A stretch of 64,000 bases of DNA, from assembly GCA_030390025.1 (NCBI GenBank), contig CM059449.1, positions 35,898,001 to 35,962,000 of the forward strand. Direction: 5' to 3'. The notes under the pieces were generated by a model that saw nothing but the letters and a program-made list of their open reading frames with translations, was not told where the DNA came from and searched no databases. Numbering within the stretch: the first letter of the stretch is position 1; each line of letters begins with the position of its first letter. A program made the translations under genes and the position numbers. The stretch comes from Squalus acanthias. Lineage: Eukaryota. Below, one piece after another: positions 6,300 through 62,500 of this stretch.

Positions 6300-8095
6300 T
6301 TTTAATCCCACTCCAGAGAATTGAGCATTAAAATCTAGGCTGATAGTAGTAGGGAAAATGCTAGAGTCTATTATAAAGGATGTGATAACAGGACACTTAG
6401 AAAATATCAACGGGATGAGACAAAGTCAACATGGATTTATGAAAGGTAAATCGTGTTTGTCATACCTACTGGAGTTTTTTGAAGATGTAACTGGTAGAAT
6501 AGATAAGGGAGAACCAGTGGATGTGGTGTATTTGGATTTTCAGAAAACCTTTGATAAAGTCCCACATAAGAGGTTAGTGTGCAAAATTAAAGCACATGGG
6601 ATTGGGGATAATACACTGGCATGGATTGGAAATTGGTTAACAGACAGGAAACAGAGAGTAGGAATAAATGGGACTTGTTCGGGGTGGCAGGCGGTGACTA
6701 GTGGGGTACCGCAGGGATCAGTGCTTGGGCCGCAGCTATTCACAATATAAATCAGTGATTTGGATGAGGAAACCAAATGTAATATTTCCCAGTTTGCTGA
6801 CGACACGAAACTTGGAGAGATTGTGAGTTGTGAGGAGGATGCAAAGAGGCTTCAAGGCGATTTAGACAAGTTGATTGAGTGGGCAAATACATGTCCGATG
6901 CAGTATAACGTAGATAAATGTGAAGTTATCCACTTCGGTAGGAAAAACAGAAAGGTAGAGCATTATTTAAATGGTGATAGATTGGGAAATGTTGATGTAC
7001 AAAGGGACCTGGGTGTTCTTGTACACCAGTCACTGAAAGCAAACATGCACGTGCAGCAAGCAGTTAGGAAGTCAAATGCTATGTTGGCCTTCATTGCAAG
7101 AGGATTTGAGTACAGGAGGAAGGATGTTTTACTACAGTTATACAGGGTCTTGGTGAGACCACACCTGGAGTACTGTGTGCAGTTTTGGTCTCCTTACGTA
7201 AGAAAGGATATACTTGCCATCGAGGGGAGCAACGAAGGTTCACCAGACTGATTCCTGGGATGGCAGGACTGTCGTATGAGGAGAGATTGGTTCGACTAGG
7301 CCTGTATTCATTAGAGTTTAGAAGAATGAGAAGGGATCTCATTTAAACGTCTTAAATTCTGACAGGGCTAGAAAGACTGGATGCAGGCAGGATGTTTCCC
7401 CTGGCTGGGGGTGGGGGGGGGGTCTAGAACGAGGGGTCACAGTATCAGGATACGGGGTAGGACATTTAGGACTGAGAAGAGGAGAAATTTCTTCACTCAG
7501 AGGGTGGTGAACCTGTGGAATTCTCTACCACAGAAGGCTGTGGAGGCCCAGTCACTGAATATATTTAAGAAGGATATAGATAGATTTCTAGACGCAAAAG
7601 GCATCGGGGGTATGGGGAGAGAGCGGGAATATGGTATTGAGATAGAGGATCAGCCATGATTATATTGAATGACGGAGCAGTCTCGATGGGCCGAATGGCC
7701 TATTCCTGCTCCTATTTTTCAATGTTTGTATGACACTCCAGTGCAGTACTGAGGGAGTGCCGAACTGTCGGAGGTGCCGTCCTTCAGATGAGATGTTAAA
7801 CCGAGGCCCTATCTGCCCTCTCAGGTGGATGCAAAAGATCCCATGACACCAGCTCGAAGAAGAGCAGGGGAGATCTCTCCGGTTTCCTGGCCAATATTTA
7901 TCCTTCATTCACGATCATTAAAAACAGATTATCATTATCACACCACTTTTTGCGGGAACTTGCTGTGCGCAACTTGAATGCCGCGTTTCCTACATTACAA
8001 CAGTGACTACCCTGAAAACGAAAGTACTTCATTGGCTGTAAAGCACTTTGGGACGTCCTGAGGTCGTGAAAGGCGCGCGATATAAATGAAAGTTT
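6300..8095 (+). mobile_element. Deu-domain SINE (SacSINE1-like) split by a CR1 insertion; 5' part ~6300-6343, 3' part ~7731-8095
   Basis: cccactccagagaattgagcattaaaatctaggctga resumes as tgacactccagtgcagtactgagggagtgc...aaaagatcccatg...gcactttgggacgtcctgaggtcgtgaaaggcgc..tataaatg. Confidence 0.75.
6344..7730 (+). mobile_element. CR1 LINE, 5'-truncated (RT domain with stops and frameshifts)
   Basis: QHGFMKGKSCL, VYLDFQKTFDKVPH, GVPQGSVLGP, FADDTKL, RRNFFTQRVVNLWN. Confidence 0.93.
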
Positions 8096-17089: not shown

Positions 17090-17239
17090 AATATTACAAA
17101 TATCATGAATTAAATGTAATAATACAAATGCCATTCAATAAACACTGGTGGTGGTGGGGAGGGGTGCATTTTTATCTGTTGGACCAGGTAAAATTTGTTC
17201 AATGCTGAATCGGCCGCCCACTTTACACCATGTCCGAGC

Positions 17240-17690
17240 CTGGAGGAGTCCGTGTTCCATGTATGTATCGAATGTGAGAGGTTGCAGCCCCTCTTCCATT
17301 ATTTGAAGCGCCTGCTCCTCGATTTTTCGCTGCACTGCAGGCCCACGCTCCTGATCTTTGGTCACTCCGTGCGGAGGGGAACGGGCAGATCGGGGGGCCT
17401 CCTTGTAGGGACTGGCCAAAGTGGCCATCAACTGGTCCAGGCAGCAGGCGATCGAGGGGATCGTTCGGACCAACTGCCTGCCTCTCTTCTGCGGCCACGT
17501 TCACGCCCGGGTGGCCCTGGAGATGGAGCACCCGGTGTCCGCCGGCATGCTCAAGGCCTTCCGCGACCGATGGGCATCGCAGAGACTGGAGTGCATCATC
17601 ATCCCCGTAACCAAATTTTAATTTACGATGTTAAGTTTGCTTTAATGGTTATTTTTAGTTACAGTTTATTTGTTTATAATGTGCACCTAA
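17240..17690 (+). mobile_element. 5'-truncated Tx1-clade fragment (ORF2 C-terminus and 3' UTR)
   Basis: LEESVFHVCIECERLQPLFHYLK and AINWSRQQAIEG..HVHARVALEMEH match the end of the ORF2 at 53466-57365; 3' UTR differs. Confidence 0.9.
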
Positions 17691-47482: not shown

Positions 47483-50142
47483 ATGGATCGACCAATCCTT
47501 GCCCAGATTGAAGCGGTTTACTACCCGATTCTCGCAGTGTTTGGTGTTCCTGGTAAGTCATTACCATCAGTTGTCAATGTCACTCGGGGTTTACCTGTAT
47601 CACTGCTCTTGTTGATTCTGTGAGCTGTTTGTTTTCACGGGCTTGTTTGTACTGAGATCAATTAAATGTCACCATTTCTAGTGAAACATTAACGCAATAA
47701 CGTCACAGAAATTCCCAGGGAAGCTACAATTGTCTCTGCAGTTTCAGCACCAACAATTTTAACAACTTTCACCACAGTCTCGCAGTACTGGGGGTGGAAT
47801 AGGTCTTCGGCAGCAGCTCGAGACGGACTCACAGAGAATCCGAACCTGTTTCACTCCGCGCACAATGTTTTTCCCATTGAAATAAAAAGTAAAGTATTTC
47901 GGGCACGGTCTGAATGTGCTGCCAATTCACTATCGCCAGTTTTGCGCTACCGTCCGATACAAATTTCACCCACAGAGTCGGAACAGAAGAAACTGGCAGG
48001 GAGAGAGAGAGAGAGAGAAATAGAGAGCGACAGAGTCAGAAATATAAAAATAGTTTAAAGAAAAGAGAGAGAAAAGGAAAGTCAGAGAGACAGAGGGTAA
48101 ACTGAACTCTGCTCGCCACGTGTAAAACCGGGGCTCGCGAGCTGACAGCTTGTTTGAAAACTCGCTGGATTATTTTTCCATTTACTTCAAAGGACTTTGG
48201 TTTTGCTCCCGGACTAAGAATCCAGAGACATGGACCAATCTTCTAAAAATAGTGAGTTCAAATCCACCATGGCTGATCGAGAATGTGTGAATTCGGTTAA
48301 AAAATACCTGGAAATAAAAATAAATGGAGCATTCATAAATTGACCAGGTATCATAAAGAGCCAACTGTTTCACTAATATTCTTTAGAGAAGGAACCTGCC
48401 GTCCTTACCCGTCTGGCCTATACATGACTCCAGTCCGTCACCCACTGCCCTCTGAAGTGGTCTAGCAAGTCACTGAGGGCAACTAGGGATGGGCAATAAA
48501 TGCCAGCGATGCCCACAGCCCGGGAATCAATTATAGTATACACAGTAAAGGTAACTGTGCTTGACCCATTGATTTACTGTTTTCTCCCTATTGCCACGTC
48601 TCGCGGTCTGCCAACTTATGCCTGAACCTCGGGCTTCCTTTCTTTACATAATTGCTTGTTTCTTCTTAGTCCACTATTCCTTCACCTTGGCCAAGATGGA
48701 TAACGGGTTGAGATGCCTTCTGAGACTCTCCAAAGAATCTCAGAATCCTTGACTCCGATTCTGACACCCCCTTTTAATGTTCCCATCCCTTGTATTTGAA
48801 TTCTACACCTTTTCCTTCTCCCAAACCCGTCCCAATTTGCAGCTCAAGCTGTGCTAGTGAGTAGACCTGGGTGTTAAGAGCGCACTTCAGGTTAATACTG
48901 TACATTAAACCCTCCCTCATAGCCATTCTGGACTAAAATACCCTGATAGAAAAATCCCAGCTAAAGAGAAACAGAGACAGAGAGAGATGATTAGAGCGTC
49001 ACAGAAACAAACTGAGACATAGAGAGAGAGGCAGGAGAAAGGCAGAGTGTGAGTAAAACTGAGGGATGGTCAGAATCAGTGACAGATATAGAAATACAGA
49101 GAGAGTCAGAGAGAGAGAGCATGAGTTGAGCAGTAGAAAATATGTGATGTAATTTGATAAACTGTCATTATCTGCCGGCCATTTTGTTTTGACTATGATG
49201 ATTAATTTATTTTTTTCTGTTTTATTGCAGCGAATTTATTCACAATTGTGATTCTCTCCCGTGGAAAGTGCGGTCTCGCCAAATGTATCACTCGATACCT
49301 GGTGGCCATGGCAGCAGCAGATCTACTGGTCCTGATATTTGATGTAATACTGTATCAGATTAAAGAGATTTATTTCTCAAATTCATTCCTGGACTATACT
49401 CTCATCTGCTGTCTTAATCTCGGCCTGGCATTTTCTGCCACTGATTGTTCTGTCTGGTTAACCGTCGCCTTCACCTTTGATCGATTCATCGCCATTTCTT
49501 ACCCGAAGCTGAGAGTCAAATATTGCACCGAAAAAAACTGCGACTGTGATTATAACAACGGTGTGTGGTTTGAGCCTTTTACAAAACATTCCATTTTACT
49601 TTGTAAGTGAAGCTGGTGAAATAATTGATAACATACAATTGTTCTGTGCTGTAAAATCTACCTTCTACACCTTTCCCATTTGGATGGCTTATCTCTGGCT
49701 CCAAATTATTTTAACCCCACTCGCTCCATTCGTGTTCATTGTACTGCTCAATGCTCTGACCATCAGGTTCATTGTACAGGCCAGTCGAGTCAGAAGGAGA
49801 CTCCGAGGGAGCAAGAAGGGTGAGAGTCACAATGATCCAGAGATGGAGAACCGAAGGAAATCCGTCATCTTATTGCTCGCAATTTCAGGCAGTTTTATCC
49901 TGCTATGGGTGGTAAATTTCCTCTATGAAATATGTATACAAATTACAGATACTCATTTCTTCCGAACAGATTACGCAGATCCTTTTACCGTCATGGAACA
50001 CAGTGGATATATGCTCCAGCGTTTGAGTTCCTGCACCAACACGGTTATTTATGCAGTGGCCCAGACTAAATTCAGAGATGCGTTAAAGAATGTGATTAAA
50101 TATCCATTTGCTCAGATGATTAAGTTAATAAAATTAAATTAA
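47483..50142 (+). CDS. GPR139/GPR142-like class A GPCR, two exons (47483-47552; 49231-50142), ~326 aa if one extra A at 49531-49537 is removed
   Basis: Exon 1 MDRPILAQIEAVYYPILAVFGVP+g|gtaagt; acceptor tttattgcag|cg; ANL (TM1), MAAADL (TM2), DRF (TM3), SSCTNTVIY (TM7). A7 here versus A6 in the paralog at ~576-581. Confidence 0.9.
48190..48525 (+). mobile_element. SINE-like element sharing the 3' tail of the CR1/L2-group LINE
   Basis: gagttcaaatcc B-box-like motif; ends gggcaactagggatgggcaataaatgccagcg as at 36890-36930. Confidence 0.6.
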
Positions 50143-51921: not shown

Positions 51922-52239
51922 CACAGAATCACAAAATCCCCACAGTGCTGATAGAGGCCATTTCGGCCCATCGAGCCTGCACCGACACATATCCCACCCT
52001 ATCCCCGTAACTTCACGTATTTAATCCCCCCTAACACTAAGGGTCAATTTATCATAGCTAATCCACCTAACCCGCACATCTTTGGACTGTGGGAGGAAAC
52101 CAGAGCACCCGGAGGAAACCCACGCAAACACGGGGAGAATGTGCAAACTCCACACAGACAGTCATCCGAGGCCGGATTCGAACCCGGGTCCCAGGCGCTG
52201 TGAGGCAGCAGTGCTAACCACTATGCCACCGTGCTGCCC
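51922..52239 (-). mobile_element. HE1-type V-SINE (tRNA-derived), full length
   Basis: Minus strand gggcagcacggtggcatagtggttagcactgctgcctcacagcgcctgggacccgggttcgaatcc (A and B boxes); V-domain gtgtggagtttgcacattctccccgtg..tcctcccacagtccaaaga; CR1-type tail. Confidence 0.9.
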
Positions 52240-52343
52240 ATATTTTGCCTGATGTGGAGATGCCGGCGTTGGACTGGGGTGGACAAAAATGAGAAGTCGC
52301 ACAACACCAGGTTATAGTCCAACAGATTTATTTAATTTTACGA

Positions 52344-53340
52344 GCTCTTTTTGGTTGGACAAATCAAAATTTACTGTAAATCAATTAAAACTTTAAATGA
52401 AACTTAATAAATCAAATCAAAATTTGGAAGTCCGGGGTGACGATGCACTCCAGCATGTTTTCCCCTGAGCAGAGGGAGCTCTTAAGTTGAAGGCACACCT
52501 CTCCCTTTATTTGAATTAATTGGGAGAGGGGCCTTCTCCCCTCTGCTCAATAGGTACTTAATTAAAATAGATTGAGGTGCCTCTTAGAGAGAGAGGCAGA
52601 GAGAGACAAGAGACAAAGAGAGAGAGAGGGGGGGTGGGAAGGAGGGAAGCCGCAAGGGCAGGGTCGCCACTCAGGATAGTGGGTGGGTGGGTGTTGGCAG
52701 GGGGGTGCACTCTCCGATGTAATAAAAGTCTTTGGTGGTGGTCTTCTGGTGGGGGGAGAAGATGTCTTCACCTGGGATAGCTGGAGATGCCCAGGCTCAG
52801 TCCTGCACCAGGTCTTAACGATGCCCAATAAGATTAAATTAATTGGGGACTTCACCTAGGCAGCTCCAGCTGTCCCAGGTCAGGCAATGGGAAAGGGGTG
52901 TTTAATATGGTGTGTGCGGCCTAGCTTTTACAGAAGCCACACACACACACACACACCCCTTGGATGTTCCGGCCTTCTTCTTTTTCTTCTTTCCTCCCCC
53001 CACCTACAAAACAAAGTCTCTGGGAGAGTGCCCCAGAATCACACCCACCTGTAGCTGTTCTTTCCTTCCTTCCTCCTTCCAAACAGATGATGTTTTGTTG
53101 TTTTCTCCCCTCTCTCCCTCTCCTAAAATGGAGGCCGATTGAGGAGGCAGTGTGGAAAGGCCTCTCCTCTGGTGTTTGATGGCCTTGGCCTTCCTTTCTT
53201 CTCCCTCTCCTCTCCTGTCCTCTCTCTCCAGGCACCTCAGTTGTGGGGTTGTTGGTTGTTGGTGGTGGCCTGCTGTCTGGTCTCCTTCTCCTTCTCCTCT
53301 TCCTGGTCACAGAGACCACCACTCTGCTGCTGCTCCTCAG
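52344..53340 (-). mobile_element. Internally deleted non-autonomous Tx1 copy (~890-bp 5' UTR fused to the last ~110 bp)
   Basis: 52457-53397 is nearly identical to ~59628-60563; 52344-52454 is nearly identical to 53398-53507. Confidence 0.9.
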
Positions 53341-53465
53341 TCAGCAGCTCCGAAAGCTTGTGATTTCAAATAAAGCTGTTAGACGATACCTGGTGTTGCT
53401 CTTTTTGGTTGAACAAATCAAAATTTACTGTAAATCAATTAAAACTTTAAATGAAACTTAATAAA

Positions 53466-56400
53466 TCAAATCAAAATTTGGAAGTCCGGGGTGACGATGC
53501 ACTCCAGCCCCCGCGGCGCCCACCGGTCGCGGAAAAACTCAAGCGTGCCGGCGGACACCGTGTGCTCCATCTCCAGGGCCACCCGGGCGCGAACATGGCC
53601 GCGGAAGAGAGGCAGGCAATCGGGCCGAACGACCCCCTCGACCGCCCGCTGCCTGGACCAATTAATGGCTTTCTTGGCCAGGCCCAGGAGCAGTCCTACG
53701 AGGAGGTCCTCCGACCTACCCGCTCCCCTCCGCACCGGGTGACTGTAGATCAGGAGCGTGGGGCTGAAGTGCAACCAGAAATTGAGGAGCAGCCCCTTCA
53801 AATAATGAAAGAGGGGCTGCAACCTCTCACACTCAATATAAATGTGATAGACGGACTCCTCTAGGCCGCAGAAATGACAAGCAGCCTGGGAGTCCGTAAA
53901 CCTACTTAAAATCCTATTGCACGGGACAGCTCCGTGCAACACCCTCCAGGCCAAGTCCCCAATAGAACAAGGGAAGACTCCCGCGTAGAGAGCCTTCCAA
54001 TGGGGACCTTCGCCTCCGCCGGACGGCAGGATGGTACGCCAAGGCGTGTCCGGACGGCAGACGAAGATGGCAAAGTGGAGAGTGTGCAGGAGCAGCCCGT
54101 ACAGGAAACGCCTCCGTGCGGATTGAAAGGGCACGGAGGGCATTTCTCCGAGAAGGCTCAAGTGGTGAGGCGGCGGCTCCCGAGGGAGGATTCGGGGCCG
54201 CGCGCCGATAAGGAATTCCGTCCGAACGGGGGTCAGTTCGGACGGGATCGCCCCACGTGCTTGAGCCTCCTCGACACACCTAGTGGAGACGGGGCCCAGT
54301 GCCACTTTTAGCGACTTGATGGCTTTGACCGTGAGCCAGACGTTGACCCAGGACATGCGCCTCGCCAACTCCTCCGGCGCCATCCAGCCCGCTCCTCCGC
54401 CATCGAGCAGGTCCCCGACTCTGGTCACCTTACCGGGCACAGCCCTGCCCTCCGCCAGCCAGCCGAACCCGCGGTCGTGGAGGTGCGGATTCCTGAACAG
54501 TGGCTCCCGAAGGACGGCCGCCGCTCCTGACGGGGGAGAACTGCGCTCGGAGGCGACGCTGTTCCAAACCCATAGCAGTTCCTGGTAGAAGACAGGCAGC
54601 TCCCGCAGGCTGGCACGCGTGCCACCCACTCTCACAAACAGGAGCTGCGTGTCGTAATTGAGGCCGTGCAGCTGGCGGAAGAAATACGTCGCCAGCGCAC
54701 GCCACCTAGGAGGATTCTCTACGTACAGGTATCTCTGCAGCGTCTGAAGACGGAAAGTCGCCGCCTGGGTGCGAAGGCACACCAGCGCCTGACCGCCCTC
54801 CCTAAGCGGGAGACTCAAAACCGCGGCAGAGACCCAGTGCTTCCTTTTGTCCCAGAAGAAGTCGACGAGCTTCTTCTGCATCTTGGCGACAAACGCAGGG
54901 GGAGGGATCAAAGTGACCAACCGGTACCACAACATGGCGGCCACCAGCTGGTTTATGACCAGCGCTCGACCCCTGTAGGACAACACTCGGAGCAGTCCTG
55001 TCCAGCGCCCTAGGCGAGCGGTGACTTTGGCCTCCAGCTCTTGCCAGTTCGCCGGCCAGGCGTCCTCGGCCGGGCTGAGGTAGACTCCCAGGTAGAGGAG
55101 GTGCGTGGTGCTCCAGGCGAAAGGCCCGAACTCCTCCGGCAGGGAGTCCACCTGCCATGGGCCCACCAGGAGTCCAGAACATTTCTCCCAGTTGATCTTG
55201 GCGGAGGATGCGTCCGAGTAAATCCGCTGGCATTCTCGCATCCTCCGCAAGTCGACGGGATCCGTGACCGTGAGGAGCACGTCATCGGCGTAAGCCGAGA
55301 GGACCACCTCCACACCCGGCCCTTGCAGAGCCAGTCCCGTCAACCTCTTCCGCAAGAGGCGCAGGAAAGGCTCCACGCAAACGGCGTATAACTGACCGGA
55401 CATGGGGCATCCCTGACGCACCCCCCTCCCGAAGCGAAGGGGCGCCGTCAAAGACCCGTTAACTTTAATGAGACACTCCGCGGCGGCGTACAGAAGTCGG
55501 ATCCGGGCGACGAAATGCGTCCCGAACCCGAATGTGCGCAGAGTCCCGAAAAGATACTCGTGATCCACCCTGTCGAACGCCTTCTCCTGATCCAGGGAAA
55601 GGAAGGCGACCGACAGACCAGCCCTCTGGGAATGGTGGACCAGGTCCCGGACCAGATGGATGTTATCGTGGATACTCCGGCCCGGGACCGTGTAGGACTG
55701 GTCGGGGTGGATCATGCGGGCCAGCACGGTGCCAAGGTGAGCAGACATAGCCCTGGCGAAAATGTTGTAGTCCGTGCTGAGGAGGGAGACCGGGCGCCAG
55801 TTCTTAAGTAGGCGGAGATCGCCCTTCTTGGGCAGCAGGACGATGACCGCCCTGCGCCAAGAGAGGGGCATCTCCCCGGTCGCCAGACTTTCCCCCAGGA
55901 CCCGCGCGTAGTCGTCCCCCAAGACGTCCCAGAACGCCCTGTGGAACTCCACGGTCAGCCCGTCCAGCCCCGGGGACTTGCCCCTCGAGAGCTGGCGCAG
56001 GGCGCCGGTCAGCTCCGCCAGGCTTAGCGGAGCTTCTAAATTCTCGGCGCCCTCCGGGCCGACCTTCGGCAGGTCCTCCCACAAAACTCTGCGCGCATCC
56101 TCGTTGGACGGATCCGAAGAGAACAGAGCCCCGTAATAGGCCCGGGCCTCCGCGCTGATGCCCTCCGGATCCGAGACCAGAGATCCGTCGTCGGCCAGCA
56201 GCCCCAAGAGCTGCTTACGGACCCCCCGTCTTTTTTCCAGCGAGTAGAAGAAGGGGGAGCCACGGTCCAGGTCCCGCAGGAACTGGATCCGCGACCTCAC
56301 GTACGCGCCTCGGGACCCGACCAGCTGCAGGTCCTTCAGCGCGCCCTTCTTCTCTTCGTACACCTTCCGCAGGGCCGGGTCCTCGACGACTTGACCGAGA

Positions 56401-57365
56401 CGGGACTCCAGGTCGAGCACTTCTTTCTCCAATCGCCCGACCCGGGCCTCCCGCCTCTTGGTCGACCCCTTCGCGTACTCCTGACAGAAGACGCGGACGT
56501 GAGCCTTGCCCACGTCCCACCATAGCCTCAAGGAGGGGAAGCCTCCCCGCTTCCTTCTCCAGTCGGCCCAGAACCGGCGAAACGAATCCCGGAACCGCGC
56601 GTCCTCCAGCAGCAGGTTGTTAAAATGCCAGTACGCGGACCCCCCCCACGAGCGCAGCGGAGCGAGCTCCGCCCACACCAGGTGGTGGTCCGTGCACGGC
56701 ACCGGCCGCATGGAAGCCGCCGGAACGCAGGAGACGTACGCCCGGGAAATGTAAAGGCGGTCGATTCTGGACCTTCCTCCTCCAGACCTCACGCTCGTGA
56801 AGGCGCTGGAGTCGGGATGGAGATTTCGCCAGACGTCCACCAAGTCGAAGGACCCGACCAGGTCCCGCAACTTCTCCATCGCCGCCGGGCTTCGCGGGGG
56901 ACCCGACCGGTCCTGCGCCTCGAGGGTACAATTGAAATCCCCCCCGAGGATGACGCACTCGCCCACGTCGATGGAGCCCAGAAGAGCGGACACTTCTCCG
57001 AAGAAGCGCACTTGCTGCGCACCGGTCCGGGGGGCGTACACGTTCACTAAATGGAGCGGCACGCCTCCCAGGCGAACAGTGACCTGGAGCAAGCGGCCCG
57101 GCACGTGCTCCTTGACCCTCAAGATCTCCGGCTGAAAATGCGGGGCCAGCAAGACAGCCACCCCGCAGGAATTGTTAGAGAGGTGACTCATGCTGACCCC
57201 TCCTTGCCACTCCAGGAGCCACGTGGCCTCGTCTCCCGGAACGGTGTGGGATTCTTGCAGGAAGCACACCGCATATTTCCCGTCCCGAAGGACCGAGAAG
57301 TTATTGAATCTACGGCTTGCCTCCCTGCTGCCGTTGATGTTGAGGCTGGCTATGGTTATCTTCAT
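53466..57365 (-). CDS. Tx1 ORF2: APE endonuclease, reverse transcriptase, C-terminal Cys/His finger (~1299 aa from ATG 57365)
   Basis: SLNING, FLQESH, NVYAP, GGDFN, SRIDR, TDH; KSPGLDG, WRPVSLL, LDQEKAFD, GVRQGCP, YADD; CHFCGLEESVYHIYIEC. Uninterrupted. Confidence 0.97.
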   Translation of the reverse strand: MKITIASLNINGSREASRRFNNFSVLRDGKYAVCFLQESHTVPGDEATWLLEWQGGVSMSHLSNNSCGVAVLLAPHFQPEILRVKEHVPGRLLQVTVRLGGVPLHLVNVYAPRTGAQQVRFFGEVSALLGSIDVGECVILGGDFNCTLEAQDRSGPPRSPAAMEKLRDLVGSFDLVDVWRNLHPDSSAFTSVRSGGGRSRIDRLYISRAYVSCVPAASMRPVPCTDHHLVWAELAPLRSWGGSAYWHFNNLLLEDARFRDSFRRFWADWRRKRGGFPSLRLWWDVGKAHVRVFCQEYAKGSTKRREARVGRLEKEVLDLESRLGQVVEDPALRKVYEEKKGALKDLQLVGSRGAYVRSRIQFLRDLDRGSPFFYSLEKRRGVRKQLLGLLADDGSLVSDPEGISAEARAYYGALFSSDPSNEDARRVLWEDLPKVGPEGAENLEAPLSLAELTGALRQLSRGKSPGLDGLTVEFHRAFWDVLGDDYARVLGESLATGEMPLSWRRAVIVLLPKKGDLRLLKNWRPVSLLSTDYNIFARAMSAHLGTVLARMIHPDQSYTVPGRSIHDNIHLVRDLVHHSQRAGLSVAFLSLDQEKAFDRVDHEYLFGTLRTFGFGTHFVARIRLLYAAAECLIKVNGSLTAPLRFGRGVRQGCPMSGQLYAVCVEPFLRLLRKRLTGLALQGPGVEVVLSAYADDVLLTVTDPVDLRRMRECQRIYSDASSAKINWEKCSGLLVGPWQVDSLPEEFGPFAWSTTHLLYLGVYLSPAEDAWPANWQELEAKVTARLGRWTGLLRVLSYRGRALVINQLVAAMLWYRLVTLIPPPAFVAKMQKKLVDFFWDKRKHWVSAAVLSLPLREGGQALVCLRTQAATFRLQTLQRYLYVENPPRWRALATYFFRQLHGLNYDTQLLFVRVGGTRASLRELPVFYQELLWVWNSVASERSSPPSGAAAVLREPLFRNPHLHDRGFGWLAEGRAVPGKVTRVGDLLDGGGAGWMAPEELARRMSWVNVWLTVKAIKSLKVALGPVSTRCVEEAQARGAIPSELTPVRTEFLIGARPRILPREPPPHHLSLLGEMPSVPFQSARRRFLYGLLLHTLHFAIFVCRPDTPWRTILPSGGGEGPHWKALYAGVFPCSIGDLAWRVLHGAVPCNRILSRFTDSQAACHFCGLEESVYHIYIECERLQPLFHYLKGLLLNFWLHFSPTLLIYSHPVRRGAGRSEDLLVGLLLGLAKKAINWSRQRAVEGVVRPDCLPLFRGHVRARVALEMEHTVSAGTLEFFRDRWAPRGLECIVTPDFQILI

Positions 57366-57390
57366 CTCAGAAGCATAGTGCAACCTCTAC

Positions 57391-59550
57391 CTAACGGAGG
57401 GGAGGGAGCGCGGTCACTGACGACCACCACTCCCTCAGCAGCCCAGTGTGGAAACTCTTGAGCCGACGCAGCTCGAGCCGGCCAACGTCCTTGTCCGCGC
57501 CCATGATTTTAACGGCGGCGCGGACGGACACGACGAGCAGCGCCAGCTCCGACCACTTGTCGAGGGCCAGCCGGATCTTCTTGTGACGACCCTGGCTCAT
57601 GGCCATAAAATCCCGGAGTTCCCCTACGGGGATGAGGGGAGAGTCGGTGAAGGGCACGAGGGCGTCCATCACCTCGCTGCCGATGGACTCCAAATCGTCC
57701 TCGATGCCCACCACCGAGTCCCCGTCCTCCTCCGGGAGGTCGTCACCGGCGGCCGACCCGTCCGTCGCACGGGGTGCAGCGAACGGCTCGGCCGCACCGG
57801 CCGGCCCCGCCTCCATCACGATCCCACCCCCAGGATCGGTGGCAGAGGAGTCCACCCTGGGCTCCTTCAGGGGCGCCGGGCTGGGAGGCGGCGGCGGCGG
57901 TTCGGGGCCCCCCCCCCGCCTCAGGCGCCGGAGCGACCGGAGAAACCGGGGAGAAAATAATCTCAAATTCCTCCAGTACGTCCGGCGCCAACATCAGAGA
58001 CGGAGTCAGGGGGCTTTCTGTCTCCCCGCCACCAACCTCCGACCCAGCGGGCTGGGGATTGTTAAAGTCCTCCACCAGGTCGAGCAGTCCCTGGGAGATA
58101 TCTGGATTGTAAAAGGCGGGCTCGGCTTCAGCCTCTTTGGCCTCGCCCGCCCCAGTCCCCAGGACGCCCGACCCGGCGAGGAGCAACGGTTCCGGAACTA
58201 CATTTCCCTCCGCGGGTTGTTCCGCGCCCCCCCCCCACGGGCAGGGTCTCTTCCCCATCCCCGGGAGGCACAGGTCGGACAGACTCGGCTGTCTCACCCT
58301 CCCGAGGGACAGACGACCCCCGCCGATCGCGCGCGACGATGACGGTGGTGGGGTGGGGCGCAGCACCCACGGCGGGCGACGACTCCCCCTCTGCGGAGGG
58401 ACCTTCCTCCTCGCAGTCCTCCTCCTGGGGGTCTAGCTTTCTTTTTAACATATTGGGGCCCGGAGAGGGGGAGGCCTCCATGTCTGCTGGGGCCTCCCTC
58501 TCTGCCCCCTTCCGACGACTGGGTTTCTTGGGCACCTCGGGCCCGAGCCCGGCCGCAGGTCTTGATTTAGCTGCCTCAGCAGTTGCGGTCACGGTCACGG
58601 GCCCGGGCACGAGGACCCCCCCAGTCTCATGCGTCCCGATCAACTCCGCGATGTACTCGGGCGTGAGTTCGGTCAACTCGGATGTTTCCTCCACGAGGGG
58701 ATCCGCCCTTAGGTGTTTATTTTTCCTACGCGCCTTCCTTCCCCCCGGACGCTCTCCCTCCCCCCCGCCGGAGGCCGTGGTGGTGTTGGCCTCCGATTTC
58801 GACCGCGCATCCGTCGCCGTCGACGCGCGGACAGTATCAGGGGGAGGGGGGGCGGCGGCGCCAGCCCTGGCCGCGCCAGGTGTCGCGGCGGCCTTGGAGG
58901 CGGGGCAGTTTTTGCGGACGTGCCCCACCTCCTTACAGGCGTAGCACCGCACGCCGTCCGAGGTCCAGAAGACGCGGTGGGCGGTCCCCCCGTGGAGCAC
59001 CGTGAACGCGCCATCCGCGTCCTCCTCCCGCGCCAGCCGGACGAAAAGCTGGCGCCAGAAGGAGAAGATGTGCCGAAGGCTGGCTTCCCGGAAGCCGAGC
59101 GGGATGGGTGTGATCCCCGACCTCACCTCCCCCAGTTGACGTAGGTGGGGGAGGAGGAGCTCACCCGGAACAAAGGGCGGGACGTTGGAAACCACAATCC
59201 TTTGCGCGGTGGCCTCAAGGGGGTCCACCGGCAGGAAGGTCCCGCCCACGGTGAGCCCCTTCTCGATGGCCAGGGACACCGCCCACTCCGACCCCAGGAA
59301 GAACACAGCCTTGCCGTACATTTTAGAGGCGGCGACGATGGCTGAAGGGCCGACAACCCCAGCCATGGCTTTTACGCACGCCTCTATAGTCATGTTGGGG
59401 TGAGTGTAGCTCTTGACCCCATTCTTCCTCGTAAGGAGGGTAAAAGGTGACGGGGTAACAGGAGGACTCGTGGCTGCGGCCGTGGCCGCGGCTGCCACGC
59501 TTGCGTATGTCCTCGCTGCCCCCGCCACCGGCGAAGATGTAGTCGCCATG
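57391..59550 (-). CDS. Tx1 ORF1 (RRM-like region, CCHC knuckle, low-complexity tail), ~720 aa, split by two +1 shifts in G runs (~58230, ~57910)
   Basis: IVAASKMYGKAVFFL, RIVVSNVPPF, CYACKEVGHVRKNC. Three overlapping ORFs join at poly-G tracts; stop 25 nt before the ORF2 ATG. Confidence 0.88.
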
Positions 59551-62500
59551 ATGGGTTGGTCTTTAAGGGCTACACTCACCCCAAGTCACAGGCCTGAAGG
59601 TGTTAATGGCCTCGGTTTTTTTGTTTTTGTTTTCCCCTGAGCAGAGGGAGCTCTTAAATTGAAGGCACACCTCTCCCTTTATTTGAATTAATTGGGAGAG
59701 GGGCCTTCTCCCCTCTGCTCAATAGGTACTTAATTAAAATAGATTGAGGTGCCTCTTAGAGAGAGAGGCAGAGAGAGACAAGAGACAAAGAGAGAGAGAG
59801 AGGGGGTGGGAAGGAGGGAAGCCGCAAGGGCAGGGTCGCCACTCAGGATGGTGGGTGGGTGGGTGTTGGCAGGGGGGTGCACTCTCCGATGTAATAAAAG
59901 TCTTTGGTGGTGGTCTTCTGGTGGGGGGAGAAGATGTCTTCACCTGGGATAGCTGGAGATGCCCAGGCTCAGTCCTGCACCAGGTCTTAACGATGCCCAA
60001 TAAGATTAAATTAATTGGGGACTTCACCTAGGCAGCTCCAGCTGTCCCAGGTCAGGCAATGGGAAAGGGGTGTTTAATATGGTGTGTGCGGCCTAGCTTT
60101 TACAGAAGCCACACACACACACCCCTTGGATGTTCCAGCCTTCTTCTTTTTCTTCTTTCCTCCCCCCACCTACAAAACAAAGTCTCTGGGAGAGTGCCCC
60201 AGAATCACACCCACCTGTAGCTGTTCTTTCCTTCCTTCCTCCTTCCAAACAGATGATGTTTTGTTGTTTTCTCCCCTCTCTCCCTCTCCTAAAATGGAGG
60301 CCGATTGAGGAGGCAGTGTGGAAAGGCCTCTCCTCTGGTGTTTGATGGCCTTGGCCTTCCTTTCTTCTCCCTCTCCTCTCCTGTCCTCTCTCTCCAGGCA
60401 CCTCAGTTGTGGGGTTGTTGGTTGTTGGTGGTGGCCTGCTGTCTGGTCTCCTTCTCCTTCTCCTCTTCCTGGTCACAGAGACCACCACTCTGCTGCTGCT
60501 CCTCAGTCAGCAGCTCCGAAAGCTTGTGATTTCAAATAAAGCTGTTAGACGATACCTGGTGTTGTGCGACTTCTCATATTTTTCCTGACCATCCTCTTTC
60601 TCCTAATATAATTGTAATAAATTGTGTGTTGATTTTGATGTCACTTCCTTCCAAGTCTCCCCAGTCCCAATAACGGCCCAGAGCTGGTTCTCAGTCTCTG
60701 TGGGGCTTAAAGCTGGCGCTGTTGTATTGTGACAGTTTAAATGCTGCCGCCTGTCGGTAAATGTCCTCCACAGCAGAACACCCACCTCATCACATCCAGT
60801 TCACTAAAGATGGCAGATTCGGTGCTCTATTCATGAGCAGTCAGACACTGTGCCGATGAATTCTAGTAACGATCGTAACCAGGCGCTCTTAAAGATGAAA
60901 AATACAATTTGAATAAATATTTCCGCAACCTAATCCTTTCAACTCCCTGACTGGGTTTAGGTTCATTGAGTGACGATTATTGTTCCATGTCACACTCAGC
61001 TGGCCAGTCTTCAGGCTGAGCCTTTCCTGTGAGTGCTGGCCGACCATTTTAATGTGGCCTATTGCAGCCCCACTACTGCTGCTCCTACTGAGACCAGATA
61101 ACACAGCTCAGACCCCACGGCTTGAACCTGGGGCCCTCTTGGTCTGGTTAAAGGAGAATTCCCACTTTGGTGCTCTGAGCACTGCCCAGGAGCACAGATT
61201 GTAAAACCACGAATTTCAATGTGTCGGCTGAGGATCTGGGCCTCGTGTGTGGAGTCGGTGAATCAGCCCTGAGGTGTTTATAATGTGGGTGATTAAAATG
61301 AAATCAGTGGGAGTAAAATGAACCATTTGTGAATATGAATCATCTCATCATGTTTCTCGTAAATGTCTCAGAATGCATCAAGTAAAATTATTTTGATGCG
61401 GTGAGTGATTTTATTTCGACGGTTATCCTGTACACCTCGGGATCTCACAAACAGCCTGGGCAGCTGTAGGGTTGAGCCAATAGACATCAGGTTAAGGGGA
61501 GAAGCGAAGGCCAGGTTTCCTGCTCCTACTTTTAAGAAACGTCTCTGTACATCTGATGAGGTGTGATCGTGCTTAACTGGCCTCCACTTCCTGAATATCA
61601 AATTGAAACTTAAGTCTATATGTTGCCCTTATATAGTTGTTGCCAGAATGGATGTTGGCAGATTTAGAGAGATGTGGGATTAGATTATTATTTTTACTGT
61701 CTGGTTTGCACACACCTTATGCATCCCACCTGATCTTCCTGATTTATTGCAATGGATGTTTAAGTCCCAGGCAGTAAAGATGAAAATTTAGCCATTATGT
61801 TTCTCAAATTCCCAATGGGCACACTAGTTACAGAACGCCCAGTGCCGGTTTGGACAGATTTAATCTTTGCCTGTAAGGACAATTTAAGCATCATTTTCTA
61901 CAATTTAGCTTGGTATCAACTTCTTTAATTCTGTCATGTTACACAAGAGTTTTAAATCCGCTTCTCTCACAGAAATCATATCCCACCTTTTCTTAAAACA
62001 CTTTTTTGTTAGGATTAATCAGTTGGTCTCGGGAAAGTTTGTTTGAGGAGATCCACTCTGTTCAAATACATACATGCTGTGTGATTTGTTCCGGCTTGGC
62101 TGGTGTTTAAATTTTAATCGAGATTTATTAATTCATGAAGCTTCATGGAATTTAATGTTGGCACTTTTCAAATCCAAGCAAATTGCTGTGGATTGTTTCT
62201 AGCGATTATACTGGGCAGAATTGCCTGCTCCTGTGTCTAAGGTTCTTCTTAATCACCTGGGCACCGTGAATAAAGGGGAATGGAAAGAGCGCGGTAAATG
62301 CCCAGAAGGGATCCTGCCCAATTTGTTGTCCATTTAAATCAATGGGCAGGCATTCGGCTGTGTTCATTAGGGGCTTGTGCTCCTTCTTCCCCAGTTTTCC
62401 TGTACTCACTGTTCTGAGGCAATCCAATTGCCCCGGGTATATGGACAGGAAAATCTAGCCCTCTCTGTCTGAGCATTTAAAAAGCTTTCGGACTGATAAC

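Follow-up and report, generated by a model that had tools for sequence, protein, structure and literature searches.

The window analysed here is a 64,000-nt stretch of the 3.7-Gb Squalus acanthias assembly (G000:C26:35898001-35962000), and its positions 52240-60588 hold two units of a Tx1-type retrotransposon that lie within the terminus of a Penelope-like element (PLE). Read in the orientation of the element (minus strand), a PLE stub is followed by a PLE-derived leader, a 7.1-kb Tx1 unit, a second leader, a further unit of 1054 nt with an internal deletion, and the opposite PLE arm (Table 1). This order had been recognized in the first-pass annotation, which placed Penelope arms on both sides; the downstream arm is indeed there, but the upstream one turned out to be a stub of only 11 nt. 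The 13-bp target-site duplication (TSD) around the whole is likewise present, but its two copies (52240-52252 and 60576-60588) match at 12 of 13 bases and stem from the insertion of the PLE, not of the Tx1. The direct repeat of 943 nt (52456-53398 and 59628-60564, 98.9% identity), which mimics long terminal repeats (LTRs) of ~940 bp as had been noted, consists of two Tx1 5′ untranslated regions (UTRs) with their leaders, and a second, 3′ repeat of 111 nt is 99.1% identical. An LTR retrotransposon or a terminal-repeat retrotransposon in miniature was rejected on account of this composition of the repeats and because the scanned open reading frames (ORFs) gave an APE-type endonuclease and a reverse transcriptase (RT), and no integrase. 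A non-autonomous, SIDE-like family of deleted long interspersed nuclear elements (LINEs) was rejected as well, since such a family would carry the same deletion joint at several loci and the exact 28-mer across this joint has a single match genome-wide.

Table 1 Features of the Tx1 dimer and its Penelope-like host, in window positions unless a locus is named
Feature	Position	Strand	Remark
Left copy of the 13-bp TSD of the Penelope insertion	52240..52252	.	12/13 bases match 60576-60588
Inverted host-PLE arm with 30-40 nt tail	52253..52344	-	Inverted repeat; arm continuous with PLE ORFs elsewhere
Downstream Tx1 unit with internal deletion, 3′ end of 110 nt	52345..52454	-	
Single untemplated base at the internal deletion joint	52455	-	~6.1 kb removed
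Deleted unit, 5′ UTR; second copy of the LTR-like repeat	52456..53341	-	
Leader 2 (57 nt), copied from the PLE arm on the downstream side of the nick	53342..53398	-	
3′ UTR of the full-length unit, stops at the family's fixed junction	53399..53465	-	
ORF2, 1299 aa, open; APE endonuclease, RT, C-terminal zinc-binding motif	53466..57365	-	
ORF1 with zinc knuckle, broken here	57391..59549	-	~718 aa in intact copies
5′ UTR of the full-length unit	59550..60507	-	LTR-like repeat, copy 1 = 59628-60564
Leader 1, 57-nt PLE-derived head identical in kind to leader 2	60508..60564	-	
Host-PLE stub, 3′-terminal; forms the upstream half of the Tx1 target	60565..60575	+	
Right copy of the 13-bp PLE TSD	60576..60588	.	
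Second Tx1 in the GT repeat of the 5′ UTR (two loci)	L095 G000:C8:17059900-17067500; L092 C559:411900-419800		

At the downstream end, the Tx1 3′ end (52345-52454) meets the PLE arm at a 3-nt microhomology (AGC) and the centre of the host palindrome is absent, both as annotated before; in addition, the downstream target part of the host arm is gone. The loss of the palindrome centre at this microhomology would most simply reflect a later deletion. The PLE arm at 52253-52344 is of a subtype unlike the Tx1 leaders and is truncated near the hammerhead cleavage motif, and its tail is a feature also described in PMC8557442. The two leaders have three locus-private changes in common, and a private 24-mer within them has two genome matches, both at this locus. 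The first 13-15 nt of leader 1 occupy the position of the normal Tx1 TSD, and the stretch at 53326-53341 next to leader 2 is a variant of the piece of the sense arm found in other leaders. The tail haplotype of the deleted unit is present at five other fetched loci. In the full-length unit, ORF1 is interrupted near 58237 and near 57918, each time by a +1 insertion within a homopolymer run, and these insertions are either mutations or assembly errors. Short-read contigs from X1, X2, X7 and X8 do not span 52200-54200. Among the short-read pieces at 53285-53475, those of X1 and X17 extend across the leader junction but cover just 30 letters on one of its sides, and those of X6 and X19 touch the 3′ junction with 9-11 letters; all four fall below the 31-letter bar and give only a hint of cross-species conservation of the junctions.

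The ORF2 product matched the Pfam families PF03372 and PF00078 (PF13966 stayed below the cutoff) and aligned with Xenopus YTX2 at 50% identity and 100% cover, with 1371 bits, compared with 278 bits for human L1 ORF2, which was searched in a different database; the relatives listed include shark and ray proteins. ORF1 contains a CCHC zinc knuckle (PF00098). By these matches the element appears to belong to the Tx1 clade of non-LTR retrotransposons, nearer to Tx1 than to L1. The family is young (~98% to consensus), and ORF1 (710-725 aa) and ORF2 (1299 aa) are both open in 7 of 35 full-length units. Related elements were seen at several places. A second Tx1 family, ~85% identical, lies antisense in the GT repeat of the 5′ UTR at the two loci listed in Table 1, and the 3′ fragment of a related, older family (81% identical) is located in the window itself at 17238-17624. 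At L106 (G000:C6:142882500-142888500) a diverged Tx1 (81-92%), possibly a sister family or a hybrid unit, is joined upstream of an array through a different spacer starting with AACAACC.

The host is itself abundant, as an exact 30-mer of its arm has 68,929 copies in the genome. At three loci the arm terminates an antisense ORF that ends 308-414 nt before the junction, and in these ORFs PLE-type RT motifs and/or a CxxxxCxxC linker with a GIY-YIG-like motif were recognized by eye. The Pfam search of the host ORF returned RVT_1 at 2e-5, below the cutoff, and no match for GIY-YIG. The PLE-sense strand of the arm reads as a CUGANGA core, an extra base, stem II, GAAA, a palindromic 15.2-16.2 and stem I, and the latter co-varies among the overlapping fetched loci (33 with TCAC/GTGA, 8 with TTAC/GTAA). 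In its tail, inverted arrangement, linker and hammerhead core, the host matches the Neptune-clade PLEs with minimal hammerheads (PMC8557442, PMC4209133), suggesting a Neptune-type, endonuclease-containing (EN+) PLE by the description in PMC8557442 and a putative minimal hammerhead of the type in PMC4209133. It differs from them in that the PLE here is the target of another element; Rfam searches of four loci (L009, L013, L020 and L027) gave hairpin look-alikes below the gathering score and no hammerhead. The idea that the leader serves as one half of a ribozyme was rejected, because GAAA does not follow it and the core is altered in 24 of 45 long leaders. At G000:C2:164562541/164562698 and C4:152277715/152277832, two Tx1 3′ ends face each other, one on each arm of a single PLE palindrome.

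Genome-wide, 337 of the 404 exact 3′ ends found with a 19-nt 3′-end motif, which covers only some of the tail haplotypes, run into the same 11 target bases of the PLE terminus, compared with 0.004 of 404 expected by chance. This share lies above the >20% of flanks of one type used as criterion by Kojima 2015 and supports a Tx1 family that is specific for Penelope termini, as proposed in the first-pass annotation. Approximately 0.5% of the exact target sites are occupied. Fifteen candidates for off-target insertion were considered, one of which (C3:199M) gave no match at 90% and was dropped, while another was recognized as an array on target that has suffered a deletion. The remaining 13 loci all begin with CAACA, are all 5′-truncated and carry TSDs of 11-16 nt in 10 cases, and the uniform CAACA fits an endonuclease that chooses the site. 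Truncated on-target copies have TSDs of 13-15 nt (13-16 nt for truncated copies of the family overall). Full-length copies account for at least 28 of 97 on-target 3′ ends and for 0 of 13 off-target loci (p=0.036), a difference that weakens if the full-length copy set aside as a deleted on-target array is counted (1/14). At many terminal 3′ junctions the tail is followed by G in place of the C of the upstream target copy; the base at this position varies between C and G independently of that copy, suggesting that the RNA 3′ ends probably run into target sequence.

At the 30 best loci, three of which represent one duplicated segment, 31 of 31 5′ ends come after the PLE arm (two of them are those of this window), and a single leader junction motif has 389 exact occurrences in the genome. 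A one-off insertion with random flanks and without a leader, the outcome that would have contradicted the first-pass annotation, was looked for and is ruled out by the 3′ and 5′ flanks shared genome-wide. The 62 fetched 5′ ends fall into 45 with a leader of 57-58 nt, 12 with ~46 nt, which fold back at an AAGCTT palindrome, and 5 with a TSD only. One junction type among these five recurs at two sampled loci (three units), indicating that junctions are inherited. In 21 of the 62, all of them long leaders (21/45), the antisense arm continues into ~16 nt that match the opposite, sense arm, and 24 of the 62, this locus among them, carry a variant of that stretch. The arm copy of 57 nt described earlier is thus correct for this locus, but the PLE-derived head is longer in many copies. 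The continuation may be a collapsed fold-back, left when a cDNA once invaded the PLE fold-back and copied it up to the nick.

The leader corresponds to target sequence downstream of the nick, and a comparison of first-inserted units with their host flanks, in which C18a and this window had no comparable stretch, speaks to its origin. At arm position +25 the leader equals the flank in 12 of 20 loci and differs in 8 of 20, which rules out at these eight loci that it is purely a long TSD. Leaders with T at this position occur only beside T flanks (8/13 vs 0/7, p=0.015), the pattern expected if the crossover with the local target varies. Together with the 389 junctions, these data support the earlier proposal that target sequence would travel on the RNA, and suggest that the leader recombines with the local target, but at no fixed point.

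Tandem organization is common in this family: 57 of the first 100 listed leader junctions, the sample on which this frequency rests, sit in arrays of 2-6 units (21/64 clusters). Comparison of 17 adjacent pairs of long units revealed no identical pair but 17-116 differences (mean between full-length units of different loci, 107), and eight of the 17 pairs show no difference up to position 100 (first difference at 123-1552). Between loci, the first difference has its 99th percentile at 99.5, and in none of 970 pairs does it come later than position 250. The identity tracts of adjacent units are anchored at position 0 and not scattered. Truncated units behave in a similar way, as seven of eight fetched arrays, which were chosen from coordinate lists for clustering and are not a random sample, have one common 5′ breakpoint that includes the outermost unit where seen. 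In the array at L104, all 14 units, the outermost included, start at element position 6792 and yet bear five tail haplotypes, each identical to tails at other loci, and at L105 a private change within the TSD is common to all six junctions. Finally, in 13 of the 16 pairs without a tie, private substitutions are more numerous in the downstream unit (p=0.021). A tandem at G000:C8:78131304-78167196 has six leader junctions at full-length spacing in ~43 kb. Further internally deleted array units, each with its own joint, are located at L083 (C592), L108-109 (C5) and L138 (C4), and two of them retain only the leader and a few 5′ bases. Downstream of the arrays at L078 (C18) and L066 (C3538), a histone H1-like ORF and a Gypsy-type RT ORF were noticed by eye.

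The sequences themselves show a young Tx1 LINE that inserts at a fixed base of the PLE 3′ tail, with a heritable leader copied from the downstream target and with arrays whose units have common 5′ ends but tails of different family lineages. We consider it likely that the dimer formed through re-insertion at the regenerated site, with the new cDNA switching to the neighbouring copy. As deduced from the junctions, the APE endonuclease would nick the bottom strand at an A^CAACAC-type site, and target-primed reverse transcription (TPRT) would begin on a family RNA whose 3′ end probably extends a few bases into the target. The 3′ end of the cDNA would then pair with homologous DNA of the top strand immediately past the nick on its downstream side; this partner would be the PLE arm, contacted through the leader, at an empty site and the previous Tx1 copy at an occupied one. 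Synthesis back to the nick would give the new unit the 5′ junction and the private mutations of its neighbour, and with the upstream site rebuilt, arrays would extend at their 5′ end, some units being added by unequal crossover. The leader itself is probably a fossil of such cDNA pairing and copying on the PLE fold-back. Copying from the neighbour is the simplest single model, accounting for the breakpoints, the tracts, the age polarity, the excess of arrays and both the origin and the position of the leader. We lean slightly against the more far-reaching idea that the leader is an evolved device, with which a full-length cDNA would invade and copy to the nick without second-strand cleavage or end joining, so that occupied sites would act as high-efficiency landing pads, truncated cDNAs would be restored to the length of the neighbour, and satellite-like arrays would result.

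Several observations weigh against copying from the neighbour. Nine of the 17 adjacent pairs lack a long shared tract. At L114, two breakpoints separated by 19 nt occur in a single array, and at C592 the 5′ end of the deleted unit does not resemble that of the unit downstream of it. Three units at the off-target L110-111 differ by 1-2 bases in 2289, units 9 and 13 of L104 match at all variable columns, and the C11 trimer shows an unequal-crossover pattern. Moreover, the 46 aligned units that served as the reference for private substitutions represent a small fraction of the family, and the array pairs are not independent. The tractless pairs and the cases of C592, L110-111, C11 and the L104 repeats indicate that unequal crossover and plain double insertion also act.

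The strongest rival builds on the first of these processes. Local duplication, by unequal crossover or slippage between the leader or TSD and the downstream arm, would be followed by replacement of the tail, either through TPRT at internal junctions or through ectopic gene conversion; here, a monomer would have been duplicated, one copy deleted internally and the 5′ repeats homogenized by conversion. Such a history would agree with the near-identical units of L110-111, the C11 pattern and the haplotypes repeated within L104 and L105, and in the window with a deletion joint and private leader unique to this locus and with four differences in 508 nt, which fit the private rate of the locus (4.2 per kb). 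It is at odds with the lack of identical pairs among the 17 and with tracts that start at position 0, it could draw on only 15 nt of homology for the first duplication in truncated arrays, and the two tails in the window differ at a family-polymorphic site. We regard it as unlikely.

The first-pass annotation had put forward a single TPRT event, in which the RT would jump within the RNA, giving the deleted unit, and then end to end from the leader onto a second RNA, a step that target sequence at both RNA ends would assist. The untemplated base at the deletion joint, the template jumps of R2 in vivo (PMC3414825), the RNA 3′ ends that probably enter the target and the fact that arrays are far commoner than random re-insertion predicts are all in its favour. 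It offers no explanation for common truncation points combined with different tails, for 5′-anchored tracts or for older downstream units; it also needs, for the private leader, a source element that left no other descendant in the assembly, and for the internal deletions of R2 themselves PMC3414825 judged recombination likelier than a jump. The analogy to R2 fits poorly as well: R2-like integration uses co-transcribed target sequence from upstream of the nick, and the leader carries sequence from downstream of the junction. We therefore rate the single event as improbable for the dimer, while the internal deletion may be due either to an RT jump or to a DNA deletion (compare PMC3414825).

Plain sequential double insertion with short TSDs, as in R1 and SINEU-3, would make the leader an inert hitch-hiker and would trace the shared 5′ ends at this locus to a common source element. 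Its mechanism is documented (PMC2718515, PMC4494074, 10.1101/158386), the junctions retain a TSD, and the pairs without a long tract and the two breakpoints of L114 would be expected from it. Independent truncation cannot, in contrast, yield 14 units ending at one base, and neighbours have locus-private variants in common. Plain double insertion is therefore ruled out as the sole mechanism and, although valid for part of the junctions, is very improbable as the leading explanation.

The history of this particular locus is less certain than the model for the family. All variants found in both units and absent from 43 other copies lie within the first 262 nt, and the two units have 0 differences in 60-427 and 4 in 428-935, of which two are unique to the deleted unit and the other two are each found in one other copy. 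The units end in different tail haplotypes of the family. The deleted unit is thus probably the older one, whose 5′ end a later insertion copied, with the switch point probably between element positions 262 and 428. The case is tempered by an identity break that is no more than suggestive (p about 0.03-0.09), by tails that differ by one base, and by the fact that both units belong to the same haplotype group in 428-935, where 3.7% of between-locus pairs are that close. Copying from the neighbour remains the somewhat favoured origin of this dimer; duplication with conversion is rather unlikely, a single event with jumps more unlikely still, and there is hardly any room for another origin.

The surroundings of the insertion contain two further features. 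The PLE landed at the 5′ end of a tRNA-headed repeat (51925-52239, minus strand), presumably a short interspersed nuclear element (SINE)-like one, and a coding stretch of a rhodopsin-family G protein-coupled receptor (PF00001) is located on the plus strand at 49513-50142, 2 kb from the insertion.

How the 5′ ends of non-LTR elements are joined is poorly understood (PMC6895275, PMC13486585), and this family offers, in hundreds of young copies, a readable genomic record of one possible route, namely homology with the DNA downstream; some of these copies have both ORFs intact. For retrotransposon-based insertion, it suggests as a design rule that full-length products may be favoured when the 5′ end has homology to the downstream side. 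Furthermore, a retroelement terminus joins the known Tx1 targets, and a LINE that is able to build tandem arrays and false 'LTRs' may mislead annotation. Tx1 families on other transposons and tandem re-insertion are already known, and what is added here is the evidence on the downstream-target leader and on age polarity. Judged by title and the start of the abstract, literature searches returned no PLE-targeting Tx1 and no routine copying from neighbours; Repbase, subscription papers and the supplements of PMC4494074 were outside their scope, and the family may already be named in Repbase or in these supplements. Penelope has 0 mentions in the main text of PMC4494074, and pairing of chimeric L1 with a resident L1 was not found in the available part of PMC11702581.

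Among known systems, Tx1L of Xenopus laevis (YTX2_XENLA) likewise has two ORFs, an APE endonuclease and a transposon target, being inserted in the piggyBac-type Tx1D (PMC4494074). The target here is instead the terminus of a retroelement, and neither a leader of downstream target sequence nor copying from neighbours was found described for Tx1L in the part of that paper available to us. The crocodilian Tx1-Mar, Tx1-8_Crp, Tx1-4_AMi and Tx1-9_AMi also target transposons, namely Mariner, LTR or Harbinger elements, and are old (85-91% to consensus) in comparison with the ~98% observed here (Kojima 2015, PMC4494074). The same paper ascribes tandem SINEU-3 copies with a TSD between them to sequential insertion and describes target-derived 5′ extensions in some SINEU-2. 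R1 of Drosophila is a site-specific LINE of the APE type with a 14-bp TSD that forms arrays through re-insertion into the TSD, and melanogaster-type R1 carries on its 5′ end target sequence that stems from the upstream side of the nick and anneals to the top strand on that side (Stage and Eickbush 2009, PMC2718515). The leader of the present family, in contrast to that of R1, is downstream sequence, and the units of its arrays inherit the truncation point of their neighbour. Also comparable to the proposed route are the chimeric L1 insertions reportedly described by Gilbert et al. in 2005, in which the cDNA is said to pair with a resident L1 and to be completed by homology, resulting in a duplication. 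For L1 this is said to be a rare accident, whereas in the Tx1 family described here copying from the neighbour appears to be routine and built into the element through its leader.

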